The notes under the pieces were generated by a model. The model saw nothing but the letters and a program-made list of their open reading frames with translations. It had not been told where the DNA came from and ran no database searches. From Archangiaceae bacterium (lineage in GTDB: Bacteria > Myxococcota > Myxococcia > Myxococcales > Myxococcaceae), in assembly GCA_043750125.1 (NCBI GenBank), contig JAYVCD010000396.1:1-18568 (forward strand): a stretch of 18,568 nucleotides of DNA, given 5' to 3'. Within the stretch, counting starts at the first letter, position 1. Each line of letters opens with the position of its first letter. A program made the position numbers and the translations under genes. Below are positions 2,352 to 18,568 of the stretch, piece by piece.

Positions 2352-2437
2352 TCAGGCTTGAACGCGCTTTGTCCCAGGTCAGTTCTTTGGGGGACCGATC
2401 TGGACATTCCGCCGCGCTGACCTTCATATCGGCGGTC

Positions 2438-4033: not shown

Positions 4034-4306
4034 GTGATCGCAGTCCTCGCCGCCAGCGATGGTGGGATCCCGATGGCGAACGGCCAGCTGCTGCGGGGAA
4101 TCAAGACTGCGGGTACGTTCGACAAGCAAGCCGATGGCAGCTGGAAGGCGAGCGCAGGCTTCAGCGACCTGGTCGCCCCTGGAGACAAGGAAGGCGCCGA
4201 CAAGCTGGCTTCGATTTCCCTCGAGGCCGCCTTCAACGTCTCCACCTGCGATGCGGTCGTCAAGCCACAGTGGCTTAGGAGTCTTTCGTGTTGCTGCGAG
4301 TTCTGA
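4034..4306 (+). pseudogene. Small hypothetical ORF or gene fragment
   Basis: Codons at about 4022-4265 have coding-like GC3 bias ([33 protein letters not shown]...). No RBS or signal peptide, and no recognised family. Confidence 0.3.
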
Positions 4307-4451
4307 GCGCACTCAGCCTTGCTTTCCTGCCCCTGGCTTGTGGGGTGGCCGACCGAAACGGACTGAGGCGCGCGCGTTTCGCGGGGGCGGCGCACACTCT
4401 GCGCGTTCGCGGGTGGGCAGTAGGTTGGGCCTCAAGGGACAAGGAAAACTC

Positions 4452-5963
4452 ATGGCTCATCATCGCCGCGCACTTCACGTTCGTTTCACCTGGGCACTGC
4501 TGTGCGGGGTGGGCCTGCTGGGCTGTGGCGGCTCAGGCGTGGGGCTCGTCCCCGACGCGGGGACCGTTCGACTGCCGGGCGACGCGGGGGTCCAAGGGGA
4601 AGACGCCGGCAGCGGGGAAGACGCAGGGACAACAGCAGACGCGGGGAGCACGGAAGACGCAGGCTCCCGGCTGGACGCGGGCCTCGCCGACTCTGGGTTT
4701 CCCCCGGACAGTGGCTCGATTCCCGACTCGGGCTCGATGCCCCTGCCCTACCCCACCCGCACCACCTACCACTTGAAGGGCGTGCAGCCGGACTTCTGGT
4801 CGGACCGGGCAGAGATCGCCGGCAACAATGCAGGCGGCGTCTCGATGAACCTGCTCTGGGCCAACTGGCAAGGGACGTTGACCCCCGGGCCCTGCACTGC
4901 GGCGCAAGAGCTGTACGACGGGCAGTGCTTCAACATCGATCAGTCCGTCGACATCGCGATCACCGACTGGACCGCGCGCGGGGTGGTCGTCACCGCCATC
5001 GCCTACGGGACTCCAGCGTGGGCACGCGCAGGTCGCGTCTGTTCTCCGGTGAGCCCGGGCTTTGAAATCTTCTGCGCCCCCAACAACCCCGCCGACTACG
5101 GACGCTTCGTCGGAATGCTCGCGCACCGCTATGACGGGAAGAACGGGCACGGTCGCATCGCCGACTTCGTGATCCACAACGAGGTCAACACCAACGATTG
5201 GTTCGACATCGGGTGCGGGCAAGGAGTCGCCTGCAACACCGTGCAGTGGCTCGACACCTACGCCGCCAACTACACCGCCGCCTACGACGCAGTGATGCGC
5301 GAGCAGTCGACCGCGAAGGTCTTCATCTCTCTCGACCCCCACTTCGGCCGGGTCTACGACCAGCCCGCAGCGGCCAACCCCAAGCTGTCGGGGATGACGC
5401 TGATCGAAGGGGTCGCCGCTCGTGTGGGGGCTCGAAAGTGGCGCGTCGCCTTCCACCCCTACCCTCCCGACCTGGCCGCAGCCGCCTTCTCAGCGGACGA
5501 CTTTCCCTGGGTCAGCTTCGGCAACGTCGGAGTCCTCGCCGGTTGGCTGCGGGCCACGTTCCCGGGGACTCCATCGGCCTGGGAGATTCACCTCACCGAG
5601 CAAGGCATCACTTCGGTCGGAGCCAATTCCAGCGAAGCGCTGCAGGCCTCTCAGCTGTGCGCCGCGTTCGGCAACATCATCGGCACGCCCGGAATCGAAT
5701 CGTTCATCTACCACCGGATGGTGGATCACCCGACCGAGGTCGCCGGAGGCCTCGCGCTCGGCCTGCGCCGCAGTGACAAGACCGCCAAGCCGTCCTGGGC
5801 CACCTGGGCGCTGGCCAACCGAAATGACATCAACCCGCCGCAGCTCTCGTGCGGCTTCGAGAACCTCCCGTACGTCCGGCTTCGCCGAAGCCATTCCAAT
5901 ACCCGGGGACACTGGCTCTCGAGCCGGGCCGCTCCGAGTGGATTTACCCTCGAGCAGTCCTAG
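4452..5963 (+). CDS. Lipoprotein clan GH-A glycoside hydrolase (DUF5722 / GH39-GH5-like TIM barrel), ending at a probably premature TAG
   Basis: AAGGA precedes ATG 4452. Signal peptide with lipobox (..[12 protein letters not shown]) and an EDAG-repeat linker. Acid/base motif IHNEVN (Glu at 5181-5183), AFHPYP, nucleophile motif IHLTEQG (Glu at 5598-5600), and LGL...KPSW near the barrel end. Confidence 0.75.
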
Positions 5964-6231: not shown

Positions 6232-7689
6232 TCAGGGGCAGCTGCGCGCCTCGAGTTCCCAGGCACCGAGGTCCGGCCTGGGGCCGCGCGGACTGCCCCG
6301 TCGATCAACCAATGGAGTCTCGGCATTAATCAGCGCCGCGTCGATTTGCGGCGCACCCGGTGCCGGAGCGAAGTCCGTCAGGTTGGCGAACTGGGGCGCG
6401 GTGGTCATCAGCCCGGTCCCGCCCCCTCCGGTGCGCACCATGTTGTTGGACTCGAAAGTGGGCCGGGGATCGCCGGGGTCGAGCTGAATGGTGGGCAGCA
6501 CGTTGTTCCAGAGCTTCACGTTGTTGTTGCCGGTGATGATCACGTTGCCCTGCTGGTCGTGGGGCACGCGACGCCAGGTGTGGAGTCCCGAGCCGCAGTC
6601 AGCGACGGTGTTGTAGACGATTGACACCCGGTCGACGGCGTCGAGTTCGATCGCGTTGCCGCCCCAGCCGGTGATCAGATTGTTCGCCACCGTGATGTCG
6701 GTCGAGAGCATGTATTGAACGCCCGCGTAGTTGTCCCACTCCACCCCGGGCGTGGCGAGCTGCACCGCGCTGCTGTTGACCGTCTTGTCTCCGCGCATTC
6801 GGTTTCGTGCGATCACGATTCGCGTGGCCCCTGCGGTGAGGACCCCGCTCCCTTTCGGGTTGTGAAAATCGTTGTCTTCAATCACCGCGTCTCGCCCACC
6901 TGAAAATTGAAAGCAGTTGTGGGTGCCGCAGATGAACTCGTTCTGACGAAATTCCAGATGGTGGTTCCAGGTCGCCTCGAGGCCAAAGCTTCCCCCGAGG
7001 AAGATGGTTCTCTCGCCCCCCGCAATCTTCGAGCGGAGCACCTTGATGTCATGGGTCGGGCCGCCCGGAGAGTTGAACAGCTCGAGGCCCGACGTGGTTT
7101 GGGCGCCTACGTCCAGCGTCACCTGGTCGAAGACGATGTACGAGGCGTTGCGCAGGTTGACCACGGCGTCGAAGTGCAGCCCTCGCAGCTGCAGATGCGA
7201 GCCATTGTGAATCTGCAGCCCGTGGAACAGCGGCGTCTCACCCGCGGCTGCTTCGATGAACACGTCGGCAGACAGCGCCCGGGTGATTGTCTCCGAGGGG
7301 TAGCTGCCGCCGTGGACCACAATCTTGTCTCCGGGTTGTGCCGTCGCGAGCACCGAACCCAACGTCGCCCCGGGCGAAAGCAGCAACGTCGCACCCGACC
7401 CCGCACCCAGACCCGCGTCGTAGCCGAGGCACGCCCCGCCCGCATCGGAGCCACCGCCACCGCCGACACCGCCGCCGGAGCCATTGCCACCGCCTCCAAC
7501 ACCGCCGCCGACTCCGGCCACACCACCGCCGCCGACTCCGGCCACACCACCGCCGCCTCCGTCGAACATCGTCGACCCGTCCGGAATCCCAGCGTCGCCG
7601 ATCGGACCTCCGGCGGTTCCGCTGCAGGCCGCGCAGCTCAGCGTGAGCAACACCGCCAGCCCCTGCTCGAGTCGTCTCAACGCGCTCAC
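6232..7689 (-). CDS. Lipoprotein with right-handed parallel beta-helix domain (polysaccharide-lyase-like)
   Basis: The GTG at 7689 overlaps the upstream stop (GTGA). Signal peptide ...LAVLLTLSCAAC, then a Gly/DAG linker. AQPGDKIVVHGGSY N-cap, PbH1 repeats (IEDNDFHN, IARNRMRG, VANNLITG, IVYNTVAD, LWNNVL), and a typical C-terminus D-F...SP/APQIDAA...DRRGSPR...PDLGAWE. Confidence 0.82.
   Translation of the reverse strand: MSALRRLEQGLAVLLTLSCAACSGTAGGPIGDAGIPDGSTMFDGGGGGVAGVGGGGVAGVGGGVGGGGNGSGGGVGGGGGSDAGGACLGYDAGLGAGSGATLLLSPGATLGSVLATAQPGDKIVVHGGSYPSETITRALSADVFIEAAAGETPLFHGLQIHNGSHLQLRGLHFDAVVNLRNASYIVFDQVTLDVGAQTTSGLELFNSPGGPTHDIKVLRSKIAGGERTIFLGGSFGLEATWNHHLEFRQNEFICGTHNCFQFSGGRDAVIEDNDFHNPKGSGVLTAGATRIVIARNRMRGDKTVNSSAVQLATPGVEWDNYAGVQYMLSTDITVANNLITGWGGNAIELDAVDRVSIVYNTVADCGSGLHTWRRVPHDQQGNVIITGNNNVKLWNNVLPTIQLDPGDPRPTFESNNMVRTGGGGTGLMTTAPQFANLTDFAPAPGAPQIDAALINAETPLVDRRGSPRGPRPDLGAWELEARSCP
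7501..7557. repeat. 24-nt tandem repeat (about 2.4 copies) encoding a GGGGVAGV linker
   Basis: ACCGCCGCCGACTCCGGCCACACC at 7501-7524 and 7525-7548, plus a partial copy. Confidence 0.8.
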
Positions 7690-9059
7690 ACCAGGTTCGG
7701 CATCGGGCCCGCGCCGTCCGGCAGCAGCAGTGGGTCTCCCCAGGTCTGCACGTCGGCGTAGCCCATATAATTCCACAGCGAGACGAGCAGGTTCGAGAGC
7801 GCGCGCTTCGGAGTCGCGTTGAGATCCAAAGCCCGGCCCATTCGGAAGTACGAATCCCCGCTGGCCAGCACCACCAGGTCCTTGTCCTTCTGATGGGTGT
7901 CGCCTTGCGACAGCTCGCTCCAGTGCATCACCATCGTGCGATCAAAGAGCGTTCCTCCGGCTTCCGGAAGCTTCTTCAGCTCGTCGTGCAGCCGGGTCGA
8001 AAGGCCGAACAGGTACTTCTTCACCATTCGGATCTTCGCGAACGCGGTGCCGTCCGAGAGGTGCGAGAGCGTGTGGTGACCGTCGGTGAGGCCGAGGTTG
8101 CTGTAGACGCGATCTGAAGTGTTGCCGCTCCAATTGAAGGCCGCGGTGCGGACGAGGTCGCACGCGAACGACATTGCGATCAGCTTGAAGTACGCCGAGC
8201 CGACGGCGGCGTGGTTGTCCGGGTTGAAGACGTCGATCGGAGTGCCGAGCGTCAGTGGAGCGCAGGCCGGATGCCCCCCGCTCGTCCCCTGCAGCGATCT
8301 CTCGATGTCTCGCAGCGACTGGGCGTGGAGCTCGAGCCGCGCCTTGTCGGTCGACGAGACCCGACTCTGCATTCGGGTCAGCTCGTGGGTCATCAAATCG
8401 AGCGCGGACTGTTTCATCGCGAGGCGGCGCGCGAGGTTCTGCTGGCCGGTCAAATCGATGTTCGCGAACAGCCGGGTGTACGCGGTGAAAGGGCTCGTCT
8501 CGGGAGGAATCGGAGCCTGCGTCCCCACCGGGCCGGCGTGAGAATGCTGATTCCAGATGTCGTTGCCTTTGTCCCCGACCCGGAAGTTCAAGTGGCGCTG
8601 GGGGATGCTCGGGTTGTCCGCGAGGATCCGATCTCCAAGCGCGCGATCGATGCTCGGCCCTTTGACGTAGCCGATGTTCTGACAGTTCTGCCCATTCGCA
8701 TCGCAGGTGCCGCCGATGGGAAAGGAGCCCGAGCCCGATCGCCACGGAGCCAGGGCCGACCCACCCTGCTCATGCCCGTCGGACACCTCTCCGGCGGGAA
8801 GACGGTCGTGGTACTTGTTCACCCCGTCGAGCACCAACAGGTTCGAGCGGTACGCTTCGAACGGGCTCAGCATGTCGGCCAGCTGGAAGGTGGTGACGCC
8901 TTTGGTGGTGAAGCGCTGGGCGATCTGATCGCCATTGGCGGTGAACACCGTCACCAGTCGTCTGGGGGGCAGCGCGGCATCGCCGAACGCCTCGAGCCAC
9001 GGCAGGCTGAGCGAGAGTCCGGCAGCACCCTGAAGCAGATTTCGGCGGGAGACTTTCAT
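7686..9059 (-). CDS. DUF1552 (HXXSHH) domain protein, Tat-exported
   Basis: Twin-arginine signal SRRNLLQGAAGLSLSLPWLEA. Family motifs RRLVTVFTANG, GPSIDR, P..AY.RLF, QSALD, DKARLELH..SLRDIERSL, SFACDLVR, HHTLSH, GTLFDRT...WSEL..GDTH, SNLLVSL. Confidence 0.9.
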   Translation of the reverse strand: MKVSRRNLLQGAAGLSLSLPWLEAFGDAALPPRRLVTVFTANGDQIAQRFTTKGVTTFQLADMLSPFEAYRSNLLVLDGVNKYHDRLPAGEVSDGHEQGGSALAPWRSGSGSFPIGGTCDANGQNCQNIGYVKGPSIDRALGDRILADNPSIPQRHLNFRVGDKGNDIWNQHSHAGPVGTQAPIPPETSPFTAYTRLFANIDLTGQQNLARRLAMKQSALDLMTHELTRMQSRVSSTDKARLELHAQSLRDIERSLQGTSGGHPACAPLTLGTPIDVFNPDNHAAVGSAYFKLIAMSFACDLVRTAAFNWSGNTSDRVYSNLGLTDGHHTLSHLSDGTAFAKIRMVKKYLFGLSTRLHDELKKLPEAGGTLFDRTMVMHWSELSQGDTHQKDKDLVVLASGDSYFRMGRALDLNATPKRALSNLLVSLWNYMGYADVQTWGDPLLLPDGAGPMPNLV

Positions 9060-10711
9060 GGCAGGCTCACCCGGCGCATCGTGAAGTCATCGGTCTGGGT
9101 CAACCCGACGATCAGCTCGAGGATGTTGCCCCCCGAAGTGTTGAAGCGTTGGCGCAGCCGAAAGTTCGAGCAGGCGTCTTCGGGCTGCTCTTGCCGACCC
9201 GAGGTGAAACGGAACATCTGGGTCGCGAAGCAATTGCTCACCGTCTTGCTCTTTCCCAGCCGGGTGACGAGCTCGTAGCCATCACTCAAGGTGCCTTCCA
9301 GCTCGGGCTCCGACGTCCCGCGCAGCTCGCCCTGGGTGCTGACCGTGTGGCCCCCTTCGTCGACGGTGCGATTGCGCCCGACCGCGTCGATGTTCTCGAA
9401 CGGGCTGCCGAGGGGGTCGAGCTTCACGTGGCACGAGGCGCAGCTGGGGTTGGTCCGGTGCTGGGCCAGGCGGGCGGCCTGCGATTGGGTCTGATCAATC
9501 GGGCCGAGCGCAGGGACATTTCCGGGAGGCGCGCCGACCGGCTGGCACATCACCGCGGTGCGCAAGGTGAGCCCGCGTCGAACGATCGAGCTGCGGCTCT
9601 CGCGATCGCGCACCGCGAAGACGCCGCCCAACATCAACAAGCCTCCTCGCCTGCCCGGCCAACTGACCTTTTGAAACGCAGTGCCGGTGACTCCGGTGAG
9701 GCCGTAGTGGGTGGCCAGCGCGCCGTTGGCATACGTGTATTGCGCCTCGAGCAGCGTGCGCAGCGTGTGGTCTCCATCGAAGACCACGCCCTTCACGTAA
9801 GCCTGCGCTTCACGCTGAAACAGCTCGGCCAGGTTGGGGTCGAGGTTCGGGTAGAGCGCGGTGTCGCGCTTGAGGGCAGGCAGCCCATCGAGCCCGAGCC
9901 ATTGCTGGAAGAAGGTGTACGTGCGCTGGGCCTTCGCGTCCGCGAGCATTCGCCGCGCTTGCAGCTCGAGGTCCGCGTGGGTCGACAGCTTTCCGTCGGC
10001 CACCGCCTGCAGCAGCGCGACATCGGGCACCGACTGCCAGATCAAATAAGACAAGCGCGTCGCCAGCTCGAGCGGCTTCAGCGGCCGAACCGGGGGCTGC
10101 CCCACCGTGTCTAGCTCGACCCGATACAGAAAGCCGGGAGACTGAACGAAGGTGAACACCAGCCACGAAATCGCGGTGGGGAAGTCGTTGCCCTGGGTGC
10201 GTGCCGAGTCGTAGACCTTCTGGTAGGCGGCGGTTTCGTCCGGGTCGAGGGCGCGGCGGTAGAATTTCGCGCCGAAGCTCTGAATGAATTGGGCTGCGCA
10301 GGCCGCCTCGTTGCCGGTCGGGTTGCAGGGCAGCAGGGTGCTCAGCTGTTTGACCGCACTGGTGGCGAACTGTTCGGCCGCGTCCATGTATTGCTGCGCG
10401 AGCACGCTCTGCACGGTGTTGAACTCGGCGCTGTTCTTGAAACCCAGCGAAGTCGGGTCGGCGAGAAATCCGTTCACCTGCGTGTCGACCAGGGGATTCA
10501 TCGTCGGCTGGTTGAACAAGTCGTCGAGCGAGTACCGCAGCTCTTCGTGGCTCAGTCGCCGCATCGGAGCCGGCCCGACCACTACGGCGTTCGTGCAGGG
10601 ATCCCGATCGAGCCCGTCACCGCCGCCCGCGCCCACCCCATTGATTGGAACCGTGATCTGCCCATCGCAGGCGCACAACCCCAGCAGGCTGATCCAGACC
10701 CATCGCTTCAT
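9056..10711 (-). CDS. DUF1592/DUF1588/DUF1595/DUF1587/DUF1585 multidomain lipoprotein with one CxxCH heme-c-type motif
   Basis: ATG 10711 gives MKRWVWISLLGLCAC. Motifs: PMRRLSHEELRYSLDDL, SPGFLYRVE, ELATRLSYLIWQSVPD..LL, SSIVRRGL..R..VMCQ...PP, HRTNPSCASCH..LDPLG.PFENIDAVGR (CASCH at 9428-9442), CFATQMFRF..GR. ATGA overlap with the DUF1552 gene. Confidence 0.9.
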   Translation of the reverse strand: MKRWVWISLLGLCACDGQITVPINGVGAGGGDGLDRDPCTNAVVVGPAPMRRLSHEELRYSLDDLFNQPTMNPLVDTQVNGFLADPTSLGFKNSAEFNTVQSVLAQQYMDAAEQFATSAVKQLSTLLPCNPTGNEAACAAQFIQSFGAKFYRRALDPDETAAYQKVYDSARTQGNDFPTAISWLVFTFVQSPGFLYRVELDTVGQPPVRPLKPLELATRLSYLIWQSVPDVALLQAVADGKLSTHADLELQARRMLADAKAQRTYTFFQQWLGLDGLPALKRDTALYPNLDPNLAELFQREAQAYVKGVVFDGDHTLRTLLEAQYTYANGALATHYGLTGVTGTAFQKVSWPGRRGGLLMLGGVFAVRDRESRSSIVRRGLTLRTAVMCQPVGAPPGNVPALGPIDQTQSQAARLAQHRTNPSCASCHVKLDPLGSPFENIDAVGRNRTVDEGGHTVSTQGELRGTSEPELEGTLSDGYELVTRLGKSKTVSNCFATQMFRFTSGRQEQPEDACSNFRLRQRFNTSGGNILELIVGLTQTDDFTMRRVSLP

Positions 10712-10829
10712 CTCGGGCGCTGCTGTGCAATCCGCGTGCTTCAAAAACAGTCTGCAAGCGCTCGAAAGACTTCAGCATTGCTGGGCGGGGTCCTCGGGGA
10801 GCGTGGGGTCGCGCCCCCAGATTGGCTGG

Positions 10830-10851
10830 ACTGAGAACATGTGTGCTCAGT
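10830..10851. promoter_or_regulatory. 22-bp imperfect palindrome (operator or RNA hairpin) between the ligase stop and the DUF1592 operon
   Basis: ACTGAGAACATGTGTGCTCAGT has 9 of 11 Watson-Crick pairs. It contains GAAC-ATGT-GTGC, one mismatch from the GAAC-N4-GTTC motif. Confidence 0.35.
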
Positions 10852-10867
10852 GCGCCTTACACCGCCA

Positions 10868-12493
10868 TCAGCAACCGGGCTCACGAAGGCTCATCACCTT
10901 CAGGGCTCCGTCGGCCAACTGCTGGCGCAGAACCTTCTTGTCGATCTTCCCCACGCTGGTCTTCGGGACCGCGGGGATGAAGGTCCACAGCTCGGGCAAC
11001 CACCATTTCGCGAACCGTCCCACGAGGAAGTCACGCAGCGATTCTGCAGTCGCGGCCTGGCCGGCTTTCAAGACCACACAGGCCAGCGGGCGTTCTTGCC
11101 ATTTCTCGTCGGGCGCGGCGACCACTGCGGCTTCGAGCACGGAGGGGTGTTCAATCAACGCGTTTTCCAGCTGCACCGAGGAAATCCACTCGCCTCCCGA
11201 TTTGACGACGTCTTTTGATCGGTCGGTAATCCGGATGTAGCCGCGCTCGTCAATGGTCCCCACGTCACCGGTGCGCAGCCAGCCGTCGTGAAATTTTTCG
11301 GGCGCCGGGTCCCCGTAGTAGGCACCGGTGACCCACGGCCCCCGAAGCTCGAGTTCCCCGACCGCGGTCCCATTCCAGGCCAGCGTCTGCCCGGCTTCAC
11401 CCACCAGGCGAATCTCGGTTCCCGGAGCGATTCGACCGGTGGCCGAGCGGTACTTCATCTCTTCTTCCGCGGGGACGTCGCGCGGCACCGCTGCGGTGGC
11501 GACGAGCGGGCTGGTCTCGGTCAGGCCCCACGCTTGAAGCAGGCACAGTCCGAACTTGCTCTGAAACCGTTCGATCAAGATCCTCGGCACCGGAGCTCCG
11601 CCGCAAAGCACCATTCGCAACGACGAGACATCGAGCGGTTGGGTCTCGGCGAACTGCCACAACCCGTTCCAGATCGTCGGCACGCCCGCGGCCAGGGTGG
11701 GGCGCGCTTCGGCGATCAACTTCGCGAGGCGATCGGGCTGCATGAACCGGTCAGGAAAGATGAGATCGGCGCCGGTCATCCACGCGGCGTGGGGAAGCCC
11801 CCAACCGTTCGCGTGGAACATCGGAACAATCGGCAGCACGCGATCGCGATCAGAGATCCCCAGGCAGTTGCCGCCGCACAGCGCCATCGCGTGAAGGTAG
11901 GCAGACCGATGGCTGTAGACGACGCCCTTCGGATGTCCGGTGGTCCCGCTGGTGTAGCAGGCGATCGCCGCGTCGCGTTCGTCGCAGTCCGGGAACTCGG
12001 CCATCGGGGTCGCGCCGTCGAGCAACGCCGAGTAGGCGACGGCACCTTCCGGCAGCGGCTCGGTGCAAAGGCCCATCACCACCACCTGCTGCACGGTCTT
12101 CAGCATCGGAGCCACCGTGCGGTACAGCTCGAGCAGCGACGCGTCGACGAGCAGCACGCGATCTTCGGCGTGGTTCGCGATGTACGCGATGTCCTGGGCG
12201 CTGAGCCTCAAGTTCAAAGTGTGGAGCACCGCGCCCATCGCGGGGATGCCCAGGTAGGCCTCGAGGTGTTCCTGGGTGTTCCACCCGAGCGTCGCGACGC
12301 GATCGCCGCGCTTCACCCCGAGGCCTTTCAAACCACCCGCGAGCTTGCGCACGCGCACTGCGACTTCTGCGAACGTGGCGCAGCGTGTTCCTTCGGCAGT
12401 GGCGGTGACGACCTTGCTGCGGGGGTGAAGCTGCTCTGCGTGGTGGAACAAGAAAGCCAGGGACAACGGGAATTCCTGCATCGTGCTTTTCAT
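10868..12493 (-). CDS. Fatty acyl-CoA ligase (AMP-forming), AlkK-like subfamily
   Basis: AMP-binding YTSGTTGHPKGVVYSHRS, VPMFHANGWG, QAWGLTETSP, GWLRTGDVG, TDRSKDVVKSGGEWISSVQLEN, PKTSVGKIDKK. The N-terminus MKSTMQEFPL is typical of AlkK-like ligases. Confidence 0.93.
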   Translation of the reverse strand: MKSTMQEFPLSLAFLFHHAEQLHPRSKVVTATAEGTRCATFAEVAVRVRKLAGGLKGLGVKRGDRVATLGWNTQEHLEAYLGIPAMGAVLHTLNLRLSAQDIAYIANHAEDRVLLVDASLLELYRTVAPMLKTVQQVVVMGLCTEPLPEGAVAYSALLDGATPMAEFPDCDERDAAIACYTSGTTGHPKGVVYSHRSAYLHAMALCGGNCLGISDRDRVLPIVPMFHANGWGLPHAAWMTGADLIFPDRFMQPDRLAKLIAEARPTLAAGVPTIWNGLWQFAETQPLDVSSLRMVLCGGAPVPRILIERFQSKFGLCLLQAWGLTETSPLVATAAVPRDVPAEEEMKYRSATGRIAPGTEIRLVGEAGQTLAWNGTAVGELELRGPWVTGAYYGDPAPEKFHDGWLRTGDVGTIDERGYIRITDRSKDVVKSGGEWISSVQLENALIEHPSVLEAAVVAAPDEKWQERPLACVVLKAGQAATAESLRDFLVGRFAKWWLPELWTFIPAVPKTSVGKIDKKVLRQQLADGALKVMSLREPGC

Positions 12494-13302
12494 GATTTCC
12501 CCCGGGCCCGCGATTCACCCTGGCTGCGAAGAAACGGAATCAGCGCTGCGATCACCTTCTGCGGCTGGTCTGCCGGCGAGGCATGGCCCGAGTCTTCGAT
12601 CACGACGACCTGGGCATTTTGCAATCTTGCGGCGTAGTCGCGCTTCATCGCCACCGGGGTGTAGTCCCGATCGGAAGCGAGGATCAGCACCGGGCAGGAA
12701 ATTTCTGCCAGCCGATTCAGCACGGTCCAACCCATCAACCCGCGGGTCGACCTCAGATAGACGTCCGGATCATTGGCGCCGAGCCGATCGCCCAGCTCTG
12801 CGCGAAGGGCTTTTTGTTCGGGCTTGGGGAAGAGCCGCTTCACCACCCACTTCGCGAGCCGTCTGGGTCCGAGGGTGCGGGTGAGGAACAAGCGAAAGCC
12901 CAGGGCGAGCTTCATCTTCAAGGTGCGAGGCACCATGTCCGGGCCGCTGTTGACGATGGTGAGACTGCGGACGAGATCGGGCCGGGTGACGGCGAGCTGG
13001 AAAGCGATCATCCCGCCCATCGAAAGCCCGACCACGTGCAGCTTCTCGAGGTTCATCGCATCGCAGAGGGCGGCGATGTCGGCGGCAAAGAGAGCGACTC
13101 CATAGGCGCCGTCGGGCTTGTCGCTGCGTCCATGACCGCGGGTGTCGGGGACGATCAACCGGTAAGGCTCGGCTGCGAGTCCGGGAATCACGCGATCCCA
13201 ATCGGCTCCCGAGGAACCCAGCCCGTGAAGCATGAGGACCGGCTGTCCAGTGCCGAATTCGTCGACATGAAGGCGCACTGCGGGCAACGAGATGAGCGGC
13301 AT
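12490..13302 (-). CDS. Alpha/beta-fold hydrolase (esterase/lactonase-like, PcaD/CatD-like)
   Basis: LHGLGSS oxyanion region, PDTRGHGRSDKP, nucleophile GLSMGG, acid SDRD, catalytic SGHA. No signal peptide. ATGA overlap with the ligase. Confidence 0.9.
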   Translation of the reverse strand: MPLISLPAVRLHVDEFGTGQPVLMLHGLGSSGADWDRVIPGLAAEPYRLIVPDTRGHGRSDKPDGAYGVALFAADIAALCDAMNLEKLHVVGLSMGGMIAFQLAVTRPDLVRSLTIVNSGPDMVPRTLKMKLALGFRLFLTRTLGPRRLAKWVVKRLFPKPEQKALRAELGDRLGANDPDVYLRSTRGLMGWTVLNRLAEISCPVLILASDRDYTPVAMKRDYAARLQNAQVVVIEDSGHASPADQPQKVIAALIPFLRSQGESRARGKS

Positions 13303-13316
13303 GTCGGAGCTCTACA

Positions 13317-13328
13317 GAACAATCGTTC
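13317..13328. promoter_or_regulatory. Putative TetR operator 1 (GAAC-N4-GTTC)
   Basis: GAACAATCGTTC(A), about 15 nt upstream of the hydrolase ATG in the divergent intergenic region. Confidence 0.55.
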
Positions 13329-13385
13329 ACCTTGGTAGCGCCTTGTCATTGCGCCGCGCTGCGTGATAGTCAGCCGACGGAAGGC

Positions 13386-13397
13386 GAACAGTTGTTC
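13386..13397. promoter_or_regulatory. Putative TetR operator 2 (GAAC-N4-GTTC)
   Basis: GAACAGTTGTTC(A), immediately upstream of the tetR RBS (AGGAGG). Confidence 0.55.
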
Positions 13398-13416
13398 ATC
13401 GAGAGGAGGTCCTTCA

Positions 13417-14052
13417 ATGCGTTCGCCCAGTCGGTCGCAAGTGCGTGGAAATGTGCTGCCTCCGAAGCTGATGGAAGGAGCGCGCGGGCGGATGCTGAAG
13501 ATCTCGCTGCAGCTCTTCGCTCGGCAGGGCTTCCACGGGACGTCGGTGCGCGACATCACCAATGCTTTGGAGATTCAGCCGAGCGCGCTCTATGCGCATT
13601 TCGAGTCGAAGGAGGACCTTTTGGCGCAGCTGCTGTGCGGCGGCTACGAGTTCCACCACGAGACGTTGAGAGGGGCGGCGCTGGAGGCGGGGGCGAACCC
13701 GGTCGAACAGTTGCGGGCGCTGGTGCGCAGCAACGCGACCTTCCATGCGACGTACCCGGTGCTGGCGATCGTGCTCCACGAGGAATCGCACGTGCTGGAC
13801 CCGTCGCGGACGGAAGGGGCGCGGGTGCTGCGCGAGCAATCGGTAGCCTTGTTGTCGGACGTGGTCACCCGGGCCGTGGCGCAAGAGCGGTGCAAGACGG
13901 TGGACCTGGCGACGACGCTGGCGGCGGTTGGGGCGATGGCCATCCGGATCCCGTACTGGTTCTCAACGGCCTCCGGATTGAGCGTCGAGGAATTGGCGGA
14001 AGCGCAGGCGCAGCTGGCTCTGCGGATGCTTGGAATCAGCAACACCCGATGA
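13417..14052 (+). CDS. TetR/AcrR family transcriptional regulator (KstR2-like C-terminal domain)
   Basis: AGGAGG RBS 8 nt before ATG 13417. HTH LFARQGFHGTSVRDITNALEIQPSALYAHFESKEDLL. C-terminal region P.EQLRALVR...FH, IPYWF...G.LS.EELA. Confidence 0.92.
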   Translation: MRSPSRSQVRGNVLPPKLMEGARGRMLKISLQLFARQGFHGTSVRDITNALEIQPSALYAHFESKEDLLAQLLCGGYEFHHETLRGAALEAGANPVEQLRALVRSNATFHATYPVLAIVLHEESHVLDPSRTEGARVLREQSVALLSDVVTRAVAQERCKTVDLATTLAAVGAMAIRIPYWFSTASGLSVEELAEAQAQLALRMLGISNTR

Positions 14053-14075
14053 AGTCACGAAGCGGAGGTCACCCA

Positions 14076-15083
14076 ATGATGCTCAGAACCTGCCTGGTGT
14101 TGGCGTGTCTCACCGGAATTGCGTTGGGCTGTGGCGGGACTCAAAGCCCTCAAGCTGACGATTCCGGAATCGACGCGGGCAACGTCGACGCGGGCAACGT
14201 CGATGCGGGCAACGTCGATGCGGGCACCGTCGATGCGGGGAACATGGACGCGGGCACCGTCGATGCGGGCACCATCGATGCGGGCACCATCGATGCGGGG
14301 AACATGGACGCGGGCACCACCGATGCGGGCACTTTGTGCACTGTCACGGCGGCGAGGGTTTCCTGCAGCCATCGCAGCCTCTATGTCACCCTCCCGTTGG
14401 CACTTCCGCGCCAGGTGCATTTCCAGACCCCGGAGTACGCAGCGCCCGACGGGGGCCGTCCCACGGTGATCTTTTTCCAGGGGACGGGGGTCTCAGGGGA
14501 ATACGCGTTCGCGGCTGACAAGACTGCGCTGTTTGGCCAATACGACCTCGCGCGCACGGTGAAGGCCTTGTTGGACCAAGGGTACGTGGTGATCGCGCCG
14601 GAAGCCCAGAGCAATGGAACGACCGCGTGGCAGACCAACATTCCGCCGACGTCCTTCGCGTGGACGGGATCGGCCGATGATCAACTGGTGAAGGCGCTGT
14701 TCACGGAGATGACTTCGGGAAGCTTTGGCCCGGTGGATCCGAAGCGGCTGTACGCGATGGGGATTTCGAGCGGCGGCTACATGACGAGCCGCATGGCCGT
14801 GAGCTACCCGGGAAAGTTCCGGGCGTTGGCGGTGGCTTCGGCGTCGTACGCGACCTGCTCGTCGACGTGCACCATTCCCACTCTGCCCGCGAATCACCCG
14901 CCGACGCTGTTCCTTCATGGCCAGCTCGACCCGATCGTTCCGATTGCCACGATGTTGGATTACCGAGACCGGCTCAACGCGATCGGAATCGAGGTTCGTA
15001 CCGTCATTGATCCGAACGGAGGGCACGCCTGGTTGCCCTCTGGACCGCAAGACGTCACGTCCTGGTTCGGCTCACATCAGTAA
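14076..15083 (+). CDS. phaZ: Extracellular medium-chain-length polyhydroxyalkanoate depolymerase homolog, predicted lipoprotein with a DAG-repeat stalk
   Basis: GGAGGT RBS at 14064-14069 (alternative ATG 14049 overlaps the tetR stop). Signal peptide ending IALGC. Lipase box GISSG, as in the Pseudomonas fluorescens GK13 PHO depolymerase, followed by GYMTSRMAVSYPGKFRALAV.S.SYATC...LPANHPPTLFLHG..D..VP and GGHAW. From memory these track that enzyme closely. Ser-Asp spacing is 54 and Asp-His spacing is 32 residues. Confidence 0.8.
   Translation: MMLRTCLVLACLTGIALGCGGTQSPQADDSGIDAGNVDAGNVDAGNVDAGTVDAGNMDAGTVDAGTIDAGTIDAGNMDAGTTDAGTLCTVTAARVSCSHRSLYVTLPLALPRQVHFQTPEYAAPDGGRPTVIFFQGTGVSGEYAFAADKTALFGQYDLARTVKALLDQGYVVIAPEAQSNGTTAWQTNIPPTSFAWTGSADDQLVKALFTEMTSGSFGPVDPKRLYAMGISSGGYMTSRMAVSYPGKFRALAVASASYATCSSTCTIPTLPANHPPTLFLHGQLDPIVPIATMLDYRDRLNAIGIEVRTVIDPNGGHAWLPSGPQDVTSWFGSHQ
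14172..14333. repeat. 15-nt coding tandem repeat, 11 DAG units (DAG-N/T-V/I/M/T/L)
   Basis: GAYGCGGGS recurs every 15 nt from 14172 to 14322. Confidence 0.95.
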
Positions 15084-15241
15084 GAGCGCACGCGGGAGGT
15101 CGGCATCAGCGCGCCCGTCCGCCGCTGCAGACACTGCGAGGAGTTTCGGCGTCGCGGTCCGTGTGGTGCAGCGTCGGCCCGGAACATCGCAGGCCGGACC
15201 GGGGTGAGCGTTCGGCCGCCGCGCCGCCTTAGTCGAGAACA

Positions 15242-15673
15242 GTTGAGTCAAGCGAAGCGCCTCGAGTCTGCGAGGTTTTGCATTGCGGGCATTGGCGGGA
15301 AGAGCTGTTCTTTGAGGTGAGCCCAGTGCGTGTGGTTTGCGTTCGCTTTCCAGTGCGTTTTCGTAGGTTCTGGTGAGAACCACCCCCAGTGGTGCGGTTT
15401 ACCGTCGAGCCACGCGGGTAGCGTTCACCAGTGGGGGTAGTTCTCACCAGTGCCCCGACGAAAGCCAAAGTCTCGAACGAAGTTCGCGTCGGAGGCGCGG
15501 TGAGGCGATCTGATGCCTGGGTGCAGGAAGCGAACTCAAGCCGCGAGGAAGGCGTGATGAAGGAAACAGCATTTCCCGCCAATGCCCGCACTGCGAACCC
15601 GCGAACACCGAAGGGGTCGTCTCAGACTCGATCGTCCGCGCTGAACCGAGGGGGGCTCCAGGGTGGACTCAGC
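15242..15673. other. Non-coding element of nested inverted repeats (candidate structured ncRNA or non-autonomous mobile element)
   Basis: Outer arms 15271-15309 / 15565-15603 (33 of 39 WC pairs; perfect 18-bp core 15284-15301 / 15573-15590). Further pairs 15262-15270 / 15623-15631 (9 of 9) and 15244-15249 / 15666-15671. Inner hairpin 15370-15394 / 15426-15450 (23 of 25), extended by 15359-15364 / 15458-15463. Additional stem 15481-15487 / 15530-15536. Confidence 0.7.
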
Positions 15674-15695
15674 CCGAGCACGGTCGGGGCAAACA

Positions 15696-15828
15696 CATCG
15701 GACCCTCGACCGACCGTCGACTCCGCCCGAGAACGATCGCGGCACACGCATCGGACCCTCGAGCGACCGTCGACTCCGCCCGGGCACGCCCCTCACATCG
15801 GAGAATCGAGCGACCGTCGACTGACCCG
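15696..15828. repeat. Three 33-34 nt direct repeats (CATCGGACCCTCGASCGACCGTCGACTCCGCCCG)
   Basis: Copies at 15696-15729, 15749-15782 (1 difference) and a degenerate copy at 15796-15828. Spacers are 19 and 13 nt. Confidence 0.85.
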
Positions 15829-16225
15829 AGTGCCCGAGGGACATTGGGCAGCGATCGGCGGATACGCGCGCCACCAGGCGACGGAAGGAAGGTCGAGGGT
15901 GGGCTCGACGGGCTGTCCGAGCATCGGAGTGACGACCGAGACGCCCAGCTTCGCAGCCGAGGTGGTCAAGGTCTCTGCCGGCTCGAGCCAGGAATGCAGG
16001 CCGAGCTCGAAGGTCGCCCAGTGGATGGGGAATAAGCGACGGGCTCCGGGGCTTTGTGGGCGACGAGGGCGCCTTCGGGACCCAGGTGAATCTGTCCCCA
16101 GCTGGGGTGCCACTGTCTGATCTCGAGCAGGGCCACATCGAACGGACCGAACTGTTCTCCGATGGCCTTGAACGCATCGGTCATTCCGGTGTCGCCACTG
16201 AAATAGACGCGGTGCTCTTCGGTGC
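15793..16225 (-). pseudogene. MBL-fold metallo-hydrolase (RomA/NAPE-PLD-like) pseudogene: 5'-truncated and frameshifted
   Basis: Frame A reads RVYFSGDTG...FKAIGEQFGPFDVALLEI..WHPSWGQIHLGPEGALVAH. After a 1-nt deletion near 16048, frame B reads GARRLFPIHWATFELGLHSWLEPAETL...TPMLGQPVEP...WWR. The HxHxDH N-terminal half is absent. Confidence 0.85.
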
Positions 16226-16579: not shown

Positions 16580-16699
16580 GCGCGCCGCAGAGTGCGAAAA
16601 GGGCGGACCGCTGGCGGCGGCTCAACTGCCTGCGCGTCGGCCTCTCACTGTTCGGTTGGCTCGCCGCGCTCAAGGCGCTGCCTTCCTGAGCACCCGCGC

Positions 16700-17257
16700 C
16701 TACGAAGGGCGGCCCGGGTCCGCGTGACGCAGCTTGCTGCGCGCCGCGAGGATCTGCTGACGCAGCCCATCGGCCTGGCGCGCGAGATCCTCGAAGTCCT
16801 CGCCTTTGGCGATCTCGGCCAGACCCTGCGCCTTCGCCGCCAGCTCGCCCATTTCCAGATGGAGATCAACCCCTGGAGCTCCGGCGGCCGACGAGGCTTG
16901 AAGCTTGTCGTTGAGCGCAGCGGCGCCCACCCCCAATCCTTGAAACTGATCGAGCAGCGCCTGAAAGGCCTTCGCGCGCCGGTTGATCTCCTCGGCCTTC
17001 GCTCTCACGACGTCGACCTGAGCCATCTGACGATCGCGCACGTGGGCAATCGCGGTGACGAGCACTTGAACCTGTTGGCCGAGCGTCGCCTCGACGTCGG
17101 CCAGCTCGTTGAGCATTCGAGTCGCCCGTTCCAGATTCTTCTGCGAGTTGAGCGCGAGCTTTCGGAAGCTGGCCGTCCCTTCTTCGAAGCGCACCAGCTG
17201 CGAGTCGAGCGAGACCGCGGCGTTGATCAGCTCAGACTTCGATTCGTGTCTGGACAT
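16700..17257 (-). CDS. Hypothetical alpha-helical coiled-coil protein (myxobacterial type)
   Basis: ATG 17257, 185 aa. Heptad-like A/L/E/Q/R-rich sequence (SELINAAVSLDSQL..F...LNSQKNLERA...DLARQADGLRQQILAARSKL). Strong GC3 bias. Confidence 0.75.
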   Translation of the reverse strand: MSRHESKSELINAAVSLDSQLVRFEEGTASFRKLALNSQKNLERATRMLNELADVEATLGQQVQVLVTAIAHVRDRQMAQVDVVRAKAEEINRRAKAFQALLDQFQGLGVGAAALNDKLQASSAAGAPGVDLHLEMGELAAKAQGLAEIAKGEDFEDLARQADGLRQQILAARSKLRHADPGRPS

Positions 17258-17346
17258 GCGATTTTTCAGCCTTTGCCACGAAACGGTGGAAGTGAGCACG
17301 ATCACTTTCGCGGCAGCACGGAGCAAAGAGGCGATCAAGGCTTTCG

Positions 17347-17553
17347 TGGGTCGTCACCAACGGCACCATCACTCTCCAAGCCGGAGCGACGGTGCGCGAG
17401 AGCATCATCGACATCGGAGGGACCCCGAAGATCCACCCCCAGGCAATCGTGAAAGGCAGCCGAATCGTGATCGACGACGCAATCCACCTCACCGGCGACG
17501 ACGGCCGACACGGGTGCCCCGTGGAAGAGCTGCGAGGCCACGCAGAGCGCTGA
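17347..17553 (+). pseudogene. Fragment resembling a bactofilin-like (polymer-forming) beta-helix repeat
   Basis: Reads VVTNGTITLQAGATVRESIIDIGGTPKIHPQAIVKGSRIVIDDAIHLTGDDG. No credible start or N-terminus. Confidence 0.35.
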
Positions 17554-17670: not shown

Positions 17671-18126
17671 ATGAAACGTCTTTTGGCGATGGGTGCGGTG
17701 ACCCTGGTGCTGGGTGCGTGCAGCACCGGCGGGGGCAGTGGAATCGGTGGCGGAATGGGCGGTGGAGTGGGCGGGGGGACGGCCTGCGGTGCGGCCGCCA
17801 AGCCCGGGGAACCCGGCGATGGTGCCCTCCGGGGATGCTCAGGCTGCGCGGTCCAGGCGCCCGTCTGTCAGGCGCCGTCGGAATACACCGTCAGCGTGTC
17901 CTGTCACCCAGGTCCCGATGGCGGTGAATACGCCGTCAATGGCGTCGCTGGATCCTGGTGTTACGCGACGCCCTCTGGATGTGGATCGACACCGACCTGC
18001 GCCTGCCTGCTTCAATTCGGAGTTTTTCGCCACGACGGCGGCGGCCTGAGCTGCCCGGGGAATTACTGGAATTGCTTCGATGGTACTGCGGGCGGGCCCT
18101 CGAACCTCCACTGCAACCCACCCTGA
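17671..18126 (+). CDS. Small Cys-rich lipoprotein
   Basis: MKRLLAMGAVTLVLGAC lipobox, Gly linker, and a Cys-rich domain including CYATPSGCGSTPTCACL. 151 aa. Confidence 0.8.
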   Translation: MKRLLAMGAVTLVLGACSTGGGSGIGGGMGGGVGGGTACGAAAKPGEPGDGALRGCSGCAVQAPVCQAPSEYTVSVSCHPGPDGGEYAVNGVAGSWCYATPSGCGSTPTCACLLQFGVFRHDGGGLSCPGNYWNCFDGTAGGPSNLHCNPP

Positions 18127-18164
18127 TTCGTCGCGGAGCAGTTTTCGCTGACGCGGGTGCGCTC

Positions 18165-18547
18165 TCAGAAACTCAGGCTGAGCCCAGATGGCGTGAAGAC
18201 TGCGTCGTCGTGGTGGATCAGCGCGTCGATCACGCCCAACGCGCAAAGAGCGTAAAACGCGATCCCTGAAGCAAATTTCACCACCGACAGCGCGTTCGCC
18301 TCGGTGGCTCGTTGCGACGGAATTGCCCGCACTGTCAGCGGGGTCGTCGCCCCGAGCAGGAGCTCCGTCGATGCGAAAAAACACCCTCGCGAACCCTCCC
18401 TTGATGAAACTGCCCGGCGCCGAACGGAACGAAGTCCAAGAGGTAGCTGCGCGACTCAACCGCAACCACCAGCGGAAAAACCTCGGGCGTCTGCCTGCCA
18501 TCAGAGCCGGCGCCTGCCAGAAGAATCGAAACAGCCGCTGCCAGCAT
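18165..18547 (-). pseudogene. Frameshifted myxobacterial membrane / outer-membrane-type protein
   Basis: Frame 1 reads RSYLLDFVPFGAGQFHQGRVREGVF. Adding one base to the A6 run at 18376-18381 continues as FASTELLLGAT...VKFASGIAFYALCALGVIDALIHH...GLSLSF*, ending in a C-terminal Phe. Confidence 0.65.
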
Positions 18548-18568
18548 TCCCGCAACGTATCAATGATT

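Follow-up and report, generated by a model that had tools for sequence, protein, structure and literature searches.

The stretch of DNA considered here, which we call the window, comprises 18,568 nucleotides (G+C ~65%) of an Archangiaceae bacterium (contig JAYVCD010000396.1 of assembly GCA_043750125.1, a 6.17-Mb assembly in 460 contigs that is 89% complete). It carries at positions 10868-15083 a four-gene divergon, [acyl-CoA ligase <- alpha/beta hydrolase] <-> [tetR -> lipoprotein], which on balance we read as a repressor-controlled cassette for the use of exogenous polyhydroxyalkanoate of medium chain length (mcl-PHA). The lipoprotein depolymerase (PhaZ) is referred to as Z, the alpha/beta hydrolase as H and the TetR regulator as T. 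We speak of a T-H-Z cassette where a TetR orthologue, a hydrolase without a leader and a gene for an exported protein of a PHA-depolymerase family lie within 3 kb and a GAAC-N4-GTTC operator is present; the window contains T, a leaderless H, such an exported gene and the operator. All four genes of the divergon are identified at family level, and both the linkage of T, H and Z and the operator are conserved. The operon geometry follows from the coordinates (Table 1): the stop of H and the start of the ligase overlap by 4 nt, and Z starts 23 nt past the tetR stop. The original prediction had singled out this divergon and the twin palindromes between its arms, and we find both arms in place with two GAAC-N4-GTTC palindromes in the 114-bp gap.

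Z very probably belongs to e-dPHAmcl, the family of extracellular mcl-PHA depolymerases, as judged from its sequence. It passes the curated NCBIfam equivalog NF050057 (298.6 bits, cut-off 270) in a match of residues 89-334 to profile positions 8-251 of 252, and a profile search of its own genome returned the locus at 299.4 bits as the sole gene over that cut-off; an over-cut-off copy is present in 8 of 41 related genomes. Its earlier description as a GISSG-type extracellular mcl-PHA depolymerase thus holds at family level, the GISSG motif itself standing at positions 229-233 of its 335 aa. Database proteins matching Z at E <=1e-10 number about 1300, with identities of <=59%, several of them already labelled mcl-PHA or poly(3-hydroxyoctanoate) depolymerase by their sources, and the enzyme itself is therefore a new member of a known family. 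On the model for short-chain-length (scl) PHA depolymerases Z scores 61 bits, the mcl and scl families being distantly related, and its best sequence match in the PDB is LC-Est1C (E 7.9e-9).

In an alignment of Z with 19 relatives (20 sequences), S231, D285, H317 and four cysteines (88, 97, 261, 265) are invariant, and D285 and H317 would be members of the catalytic triad, judging from position and conservation. Cys19, which follows a hydrophobic stretch, is conserved in at least 90% of the same sequences. The protein thus runs from a predicted signal peptide with lipobox through a linker to one domain that reaches the C-terminus, with no C-terminal substrate-binding domain. The AlphaFold model has a mean predicted local distance difference test score (pLDDT) of 72.7; it is good for the catalytic domain, falls to 57-60 for residues ~230-260 around the GISSG nucleophile, and stays below 50 for residues 20-81 of the linker, which is predicted to be disordered. 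The linker repeat shows 84% matches with further 30- and 60-nt periodicities, and linker length and composition vary widely among the aligned relatives; it may be a rapidly evolving spacer. According to the available parts of two accounts of these enzymes (PMC2666664; PMC11893044), all dPHAmcl depolymerases have Ile at position x1 of the lipase box, as in the GISSG of Z, and normally possess no separate substrate-binding domain.

The regulator carries TetR_N (51.4 bits) and TetR_C_24 (62 bits) domains and is best started at the ATG at 13417, with GAGAGGAGG 7 nt upstream; T orthologues align from residue 1 of that start. We consider it very probable that T controls the locus through the twin operators O1 and O2. 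In the window GAACRNNYGTTC is found two times where 0.13 would be expected, none of 200 shuffles reached two, and both operators lie inside a 17-nt inverted repeat. Between them lies the sole sigma-70-like promoter in 10500-15600 (1 found, 0.2 expected), and because of this predicted position O2 would fall just past the transcription start. We then searched the 200 bp upstream of 75 T orthologues (25 mcl-linked, 50 scl-linked), tolerating a single mismatch in the arms at most: 72 of the 75 have a GAAC-N4-GTTC site and 64 have more than one, although for 20 of these 64 the pair consists of registers that overlap within one longer palindrome. The sites have the consensus tGAACGATCGTTCa, separate ones are usually 55-69 bp apart, and the background density over all DNA searched is 0.38 per kb. 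The three loci without a site comprise a truncated one and two from Haliangium with a variant palindrome. This conservation bears out the proposal that the twin palindromes are an operator.

Across the 6.17-Mb genome there are 40 GAACRNNYGTTC sites compared with 7 for the reversed control, and sites paired within 100 bp occur at the cassette locus only. The 38 other sites were rejected as regulon members, most of them lying inside coding frames or having GC-rich centres. The best-looking of these (contig C434) was likewise dropped: the TetR that it goes with is another one, accompanied by MacB/FtsX and LolA-like genes. On that contig (L135 5143-9055), genes for two permeases of the MacB/FtsX type and for a LolA-like protein come after a TetR that has only a TetR_N domain, and a single GAACGACCGTTC ~30 nt before the TetR start resembles the half-sites of the cassette operator in what is a separate system. 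Since no other site pair was found, the regulon is the cassette locus only, so far as can be seen in an assembly that is 89% complete.

The best solved matches to T are 3vpr, 5k7f and KstR2 (53-60 bits over both domains), and T falls under all NCBIfam regulator cut-offs (FadR 28/200, FasR 35/330). In the portions of the structural papers available, 3vpr is PfmR of Thermus (PMC10636190) and 5k7f is AibR of Myxococcus xanthus, which binds isovaleryl-CoA (PMC5389471). The view of T as a TetR of the acyl-CoA-sensor type is therefore carried by its relatives, the nearest solved matches including acyl-CoA binders; that its ligand is a 3-hydroxyacyl-CoA we regard as rather doubtful.

Conservation of the neighbourhood was assessed by a PhaZ scan with one genome per species, in which the best 80 of 251 relatives gave 79 distinct loci, nearly all from Myxococcota. 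Neighbours were found by tblastn with the four window proteins, requiring >=140 bits for T and >=150 bits for H within 3 kb of PhaZ. With the window included (80 loci), T accompanies PhaZ in 24, H in 20, both in 18, and either in 26, and an acyl-CoA ligase abuts in 10; for the 62 loci flanked by 3 kb or more on each side, the corresponding numbers are 16, 14, 13, 17 and 7. Identities to the window proteins are 40-55% for T orthologues and 44-71% for H orthologues. At least eight gene orders are seen (A, ligase): H<- <->T->Z, as in the window; T<- <->H->A->Z; H->Z->T; T->Z->H; A->T->H->Z; H<-T<- <->A->Z; T->Z alone; and H<- <->Z. That the linkage survives so much rearrangement argues for a shared function, and of the four-gene synteny foreseen across Myxococcota, the part concerning PhaZ, TetR and hydrolase stands. 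In a FastTree phylogeny of Z catalytic domains (midpoint-rooted, with Shimodaira-Hasegawa-like support only) the linked loci fall into three clades: one of 25 rows that includes the window (15 linked), a Haliangium pair, and one of 10 rows from Polyangium, Minicystis and Archangium (9 linked).

Stop-to-stop open reading frames (ORFs) in the surroundings of 85 PhaZ loci were clustered all against all; antisense shadow ORFs blurred the outcome, but no other neighbour family turned up in more than 11 loci, so that no conserved transporter or beta-oxidation gene is linked. The expression "complete regulon" in the original prediction is therefore not supported, as neither a linked transporter or beta-oxidation gene nor a second twin-operator site in the genome was found. 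Two loci show multiple PhaZ copies: L076 has two in tandem (7787-9753), and two contigs of one metagenome-assembled genome (L041 and L044) carry near-identical TetR-PhaZ pairs, which could reflect duplication or assembly haplotypes.

A second type of cassette became evident from the hydrolase. H orthologues (60-63% identical) occur in two relatives without an mcl-type PhaZ (G015, G010), where H is divergent to a T orthologue with the same operator and a secreted scl-type depolymerase lies directly downstream. These depolymerases carry Pfam Esterase_PHB and pass NF050058, the model for the extracellular catalytic domain type 1 of scl-PHA depolymerases, with 280.1 and 273 bits (cut-off 150). In an even sample of 401 Myxococcota genomes, with all positives at E <=1e-60 examined, H is present in 66, the window's genome included, and a PHA-depolymerase-family gene adjoins it in 59. 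The neighbour is of the scl type (e_dPHAscl_type1) in 54 genomes (29/29 and 25/25 examined), two of these depolymerases being fragments only (L160, at a contig end, and L174), and of the mcl type in five (G000, which is the window's genome, G008, G020, G288 and G147). The scl form is a compact three-gene unit of T, H and a secreted scl catalytic domain, found in 54 of the 401 genomes in two arrangements (L137, L144-L197). Its depolymerases have neither linker nor substrate-binding domain; one of 371 aa (P0125) consists of a leader and one catalytic domain. In L174 (4402-4668) the depolymerase is seen as two short overlapping fragments and may be decayed or partly masked. The flanks of the scl cassette in L177 encode a LysR, a metallo-beta-lactamase, an outer-membrane beta-barrel protein and a BlaR1-like protein, and neither a 3-hydroxybutyrate dehydrogenase nor a ligase was found on them.

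Across 18 orthologues of H, Ser94 (in GLSMGG), Asp213, His240 and H26-G27 are invariant, and all 18 start at a homologous Met-Pro without a leader. We give a little less than an even chance to H being specifically an oligomer esterase. More tentatively still, and as a single joint proposal, H could be the cytoplasmic enzyme, long missing, that hydrolyses dimers and oligomers of 3-hydroxyalkanoates, T a sensor dedicated to the breakdown products of PHA and acting at a defined 12-bp operator, and T-H-Z an ancient Myxococcota-wide module for living on the storage polyester of other cells, in which the exported depolymerase was swapped between mcl and scl types and a ligase was recruited several times, but only where the monomers have to go through beta-oxidation.

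The ligase is the weak member of the cassette, yet not a random one. That of the window belongs to the PRK06187 subfamily of long-chain-fatty-acid-CoA ligases (NF004837, 643.7 bits, cut-off 476), and its nearest solved structure is the Thermus long-chain fatty acyl-CoA synthetase 1ult (464.7 bits). On the AlkK-type medium-chain model NF004758 (PRK06087) it reaches 228 bits against a cut-off of 736, and the label "AlkK-like" that it had been given is therefore withdrawn. The ligases of the 10 abutting cases belong to several NCBIfam subfamilies (PRK06187, PRK08316, PRK08162 and a FadD4/PRK12406-like group). Besides orthologues of the window's ligase, the clusters hold PRK08316 in L047 (736.7 bits, cut-off 663), with a near-identical ORF in L045; PRK08162 in L061 (902 bits, cut-off 677); FadD4/PRK12406/BaiB-like forms under all cut-offs in L050 and L060; and PRK06187-like forms, also under the cut-off, in L062 and L078. 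That fatty-acyl-CoA ligases which are not orthologous were recruited again and again suggests a pathway yielding a fatty-type acid in need of activation. Of the 26 mcl loci with T or H, 8 have a ligase beside them, but no ligase was detected in the 54 scl cassettes (flanks of 1.5 kb searched for 29 and of 3.5 kb for the other 25). Beta-oxidation takes up medium-chain 3-hydroxy acids in the form of their CoA esters, while 3-hydroxybutyrate undergoes direct oxidation, and the confinement of the ligase to mcl cassettes fits this difference in catabolism.

The cassette probably processes PHA breakdown products, and we infer from the genes the enzymatic activities, their localisation, the ligand, the regulatory sign and the source of the polymer (prey or dead cells). 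Z would be exported, lipid-anchored via Cys19 and held off the membrane by its disordered (V/I)DAGN linker, and would cleave mcl-PHA outside the cytoplasm to soluble 3-hydroxyalkanoate dimers and oligomers, as characterised members of its family do. The enzymes of Pseudomonas fluorescens GK13 and Bdellovibrio release mainly dimers, according to the available parts of the sources (PMC4834554 for Bdellovibrio), and a downstream esterase is therefore needed. The oligomers would enter the cell by a route without a linked transporter, H, as a leaderless cytoplasmic serine esterase, would split the imported esters, and the ligase, translationally coupled to H, would activate the 3-hydroxy acids for beta-oxidation. 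T is expected to bind the two GAAC-N4-GTTC palindromes, which bracket the tetR-phaZ promoter and abut the start of H, and thereby to control both divergent operons as well as itself, with a pathway-derived acyl compound altering its DNA binding.

The order of the steps or the ligand may differ from this scheme, which we think distinctly unlikely: T could sense free 3-hydroxy acids or their dimers instead of CoA esters, with the ligase optional, or the ligase could activate the dimer before H splits the ester of the resulting dimer-CoA. Such a variant would suit the translational coupling of H and ligase in the window, and also the absence of a ligase from 16 of the 24 T-carrying PhaZ loci and from all scl cassettes. 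Since most T-H-Z cassettes are ligase-free, the shared T must respond to a compound made without a cassette ligase, and its common ligand may not be a cassette-made CoA ester. On the other hand, CoA thioesters are what the closest TetR relatives of solved structure and known ligand bind, and CoA esters could come from housekeeping ligases encoded elsewhere in the genome.

Several observations weigh against the reading of the locus as an mcl-PHA cassette. The activities of all four proteins are predictions from family membership. Z clears the NF050057 cut-off by just 28 bits, the e-dPHAmcl family is without a solved structure, and Foldseek of the Z model against the PDB returned only generic alpha/beta hydrolases (TM-score <=0.67) with no functional discrimination. 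H stays under every NCBIfam cut-off (PcaD 135/255.85; i_nPHAscl, NF050089, 88.3/300; PHA_depoly_arom, TIGR02240, 47.4/250.6) and is for this reason filed only as an Abhydrolase_1/6 serine hydrolase. Neither T nor H is found at 54 of the 80 PhaZ loci, among them a 41-row PhaZ clade (Nannocystis, Sandaracinus and others) with no T or H neighbour and one adjacent ligase. True orthologues of the window's ligase lie near PhaZ in just three other loci (L058, L067, L111; 47-59% identical), so that the fourth gene of the predicted synteny falls away, and the clustering around PhaZ loci yielded no linked transporter. Related genomes are not independent (H occurs, for example, in 29 of 32 genomes of one genus), and the 29 scl-linked H rows examined form one clade nested among mcl-linked rows in the H tree, a pattern that a single mcl-to-scl exchange would therefore explain. 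Induction of the locus by its own product, part of the original prediction, cannot be assumed, because AibR binds DNA with its ligand bound.

The slim margin of Z over its cut-off also lends some plausibility to a different substrate for the same architecture, in which Z would be an exported esterase or lipase of broad range that attacks other hydrophobic esters (prey lipids, waxes, cutin or suberin-type polyesters, for instance), the fatty or hydroxy-fatty acids set free would pass through H and the ligase to beta-oxidation, and T would be a fatty-acyl sensor. This would agree with the generic fatty-acid types of the ligases, with the esterase activity also noted for the GK13 enzyme in what is available of its description, and with the Burkholderia mcl-PHA degrader being a promiscuous lipase in the accessible text of that study (PMC13101487). 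It would agree further with the scl-type partners, which do without the substrate-binding domain that is typical of true PHB (poly(3-hydroxybutyrate)) depolymerases by the domain rule given in the available parts of PMC11893044 and PMC2666664. Nevertheless, both depolymerase types pass curated PHA models (mcl 298.6/270; scl 280 and 273/150), dPHAmcl enzymes normally have no such domain in any case (PMC2666664, available part), and ligases present in mcl cassettes only fit the chain length of 3-hydroxyalkanoates better than a general lipid. We therefore consider another substrate improbable, if still the most serious competitor.

Seven of the 66 H homologues are without a nearby depolymerase (all <=53% identical, one cut at a contig start), and the nearest solved relatives of H are general esterases (6eb3, 8v16) followed by 5egn, which is Est816, an esterase with acyl-homoserine-lactone (AHL) lactonase activity in the part of its description available. 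These points, and the fact that TetR and hydrolase pairs are common, could indicate that T and H are an independent detoxification or quorum-quenching unit that merely sits beside the depolymerase and shares no pathway with it. Such a coincidence seems very unlikely given that the depolymerase is directly beside H in 59 of the 66 genomes despite repeated reshuffling of gene order, that it shares an operon with T or H in many loci (the gap in the window being 23 nt), and that the operators bracket the promoter driving tetR-phaZ.

If the locus is indeed a cassette for exogenous mcl-PHA, the source of the polymer has to be considered. Predation on PHA-rich prey is plausible for a myxobacterium, with Bdellovibrio as a precedent, and scavenging of PHA from dead cells is equally compatible. 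A further point against an exogenous substrate is a class III PhaC-like ORF in the genome (TIGR01836, 251.6 bits, under the cut-off of 365). Because of this gene it is not established that the substrate comes from prey alone, an inability of the organism to make PHA was dropped as an idea, and the organism may make or turn over PHA of its own. The ORF lies on contig C112 (L207 1189-2484), together with a PHB-depolymerase-family esterase (L208 168-872; NF050058 124/150, below the cut-off). The stretch was found in sediment metagenome runs, with no RNA run among them.

Table 1. Features of the divergon and its control region in the 18,568-nt window
Feature	Position	Strand	Basis
Acyl-CoA ligase, PRK06187 subfamily, 541 aa	10868-12493	-	Pfam AMP-binding + AMP-binding_C; NF004837
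H, predicted cytoplasmic alpha/beta-fold serine hydrolase, 270 aa	12490-13302	-	Abhydrolase_1 + Abhydrolase_6
Divergent control region, 114 bp, with both operators and the promoter-like site	13303-13416		Direct sequence reading
Operator O1, GAACAATCGTTC, 14 nt upstream of the H start codon	13317-13328		Inverted repeat, conserved motif
Sigma-70-like promoter TTGTCA-16-GATAGT for tetR-phaZ	13343-13370	+	Consensus match only
Operator O2, GAACAGTTGTTC, 15 nt past the -10 hexamer, with the tetR ATG following 19 nt on	13386-13397		Inverted repeat, conserved motif
T, TetR-family regulator, 211 aa	13417-14052	+	TetR_N + TetR_C_24
Z, lipoprotein of the extracellular mcl-PHA depolymerase family, 335 aa	14076-15083	+	NF050057 e_dPHAmcl equivalog
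Z signal peptide with lipobox (IALG-C19)	14076-14132	+	Translation; Cys19 conservation
Z low-complexity linker, 15-nt unit x10.9, encoding (I/V/M)DAG(N/T)	14169-14332	+	Tandem Repeats Finder
Z catalytic domain	14340-15077	+	Family match in genome search; pLDDT mostly 84-95
Weak terminator-like hairpin, 176 nt past the phaZ stop	15259-15286	+	Prediction

The terminator-like hairpin is not significant (5 such hairpins found, 3.5 expected in shuffles). Downstream of the ligase, at a distance of 123 nt, lies a gene pair on the minus strand (7686-10744) encoding a DUF1552 protein (HXXSHH, PF07586) and a multi-domain DUF1592/1588/1595/1585/1587 protein; a pair of this type is not conserved beside PhaZ in the other loci. 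Farther away, two right-handed beta-helix proteins (one NosD-like) and a DUF5722 protein are encoded at 53-2056 (+), 4059-5963 (+) and 6232-7776 (-), and the ORFs at 2369-3895, 15431-16177, 16592-17452 and 17839-18555 gave no Pfam match.

Extracellular mcl-PHA depolymerases are known as single enzymes, and the fate of the dimers, the sensing of products and the control of expression are poorly described; the most recent genetic study that we found, on Burkholderia vietnamiensis, identified no downstream enzyme or uptake system in its available text (PMC13101487). The cassette offers a candidate oligomer esterase, a regulator with a defined operator and a chain-length-dependent association with acyl-CoA ligases. 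It is present in cultured strains, in which knock-outs are possible: in its mcl form in Polyangium fumosum DSM 14668 and Minicystis rosea DSM 24000 (loci L077 and L104), and in its scl form in cultured members of the window's family, of which many carry the cassette. Its distribution suggests that PHA scavenging is widespread in myxobacteria. This has implications for their ecology as predators and saprophytes and for the turnover of carbon in sediment and soil, and it may be of use to those looking for enzymes and inducible promoters with which to recycle bioplastics.

Among characterised systems, the GK13 depolymerase is resembled by Z in several respects: Z exceeds the equivalog cut-off, has a GISSG box with Ile at x1 and the Ser/Asp/His residues, and consists of a single catalytic domain with no separate substrate-binding domain. 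Unlike the freely secreted GK13 enzyme, Z is a predicted lipoprotein with a long repeat linker; it has four invariant cysteines and sits in a TetR/hydrolase cassette. Expression of the GK13 enzyme depends on 3-hydroxyalkanoates or starvation, as far as the available part of its description goes. The depolymerase that Bdellovibrio bacteriovorus HD100 has, PhaZBd (Bd3709), breaks the PHA of its prey down into dimers and trimers (PMC4834554, in the part available), and a review, in its available part, describes it as sensitive to dithiothreitol, implying disulfides; a likeness to Z exists by this description only, in that such sensitivity fits the conserved cysteines. It differs in that the available accounts of PhaZBd describe no linked regulator, esterase or ligase.

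With AibR, PfmR and KstR2 the regulator T shares palindromic operators, besides these being its best solved matches, but identity is low and the operator is GAACGATCGTTC here as opposed to the 18-bp AibR repeat. AibR binds DNA only with its ligand bound (PMC5389471, available text), and its regulatory sign is therefore not transferable to T. The scl (PHB) type 1 depolymerases are connected to the present system by the same T-H pair and operator, which stand beside e_dPHAscl_type1 genes in 54 sampled genomes; the myxobacterial scl partners differ from others of their kind in having neither linker nor substrate-binding domain, and the window itself is of the mcl type. A succession of depolymerase and oligomer hydrolase is established for PHB, and H differs from the PHB oligomer hydrolases in standing outside the curated intracellular depolymerase and hydrolase families.

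A parallel on the regulatory side is B. vietnamiensis, where extracellular mcl-PHA degradation needs a TetR/AcrR regulator (PMC13101487); this is the only genetic dissection of the process that we found, and we draw on the part of it available. In B. vietnamiensis the regulator gene has a distant locus tag, and in the text available no downstream esterase or ligase is identified and passive uptake is proposed. A full-text literature search, with most subscription journals outside it, returned no description of a myxobacterial PHA depolymerase or of a T-H-Z cassette. The depolymerase family is a known one that automatic annotation would name; the T-H-Z cassette with its operator and the mcl/scl duality appear to be a new variant at the level of the operon.

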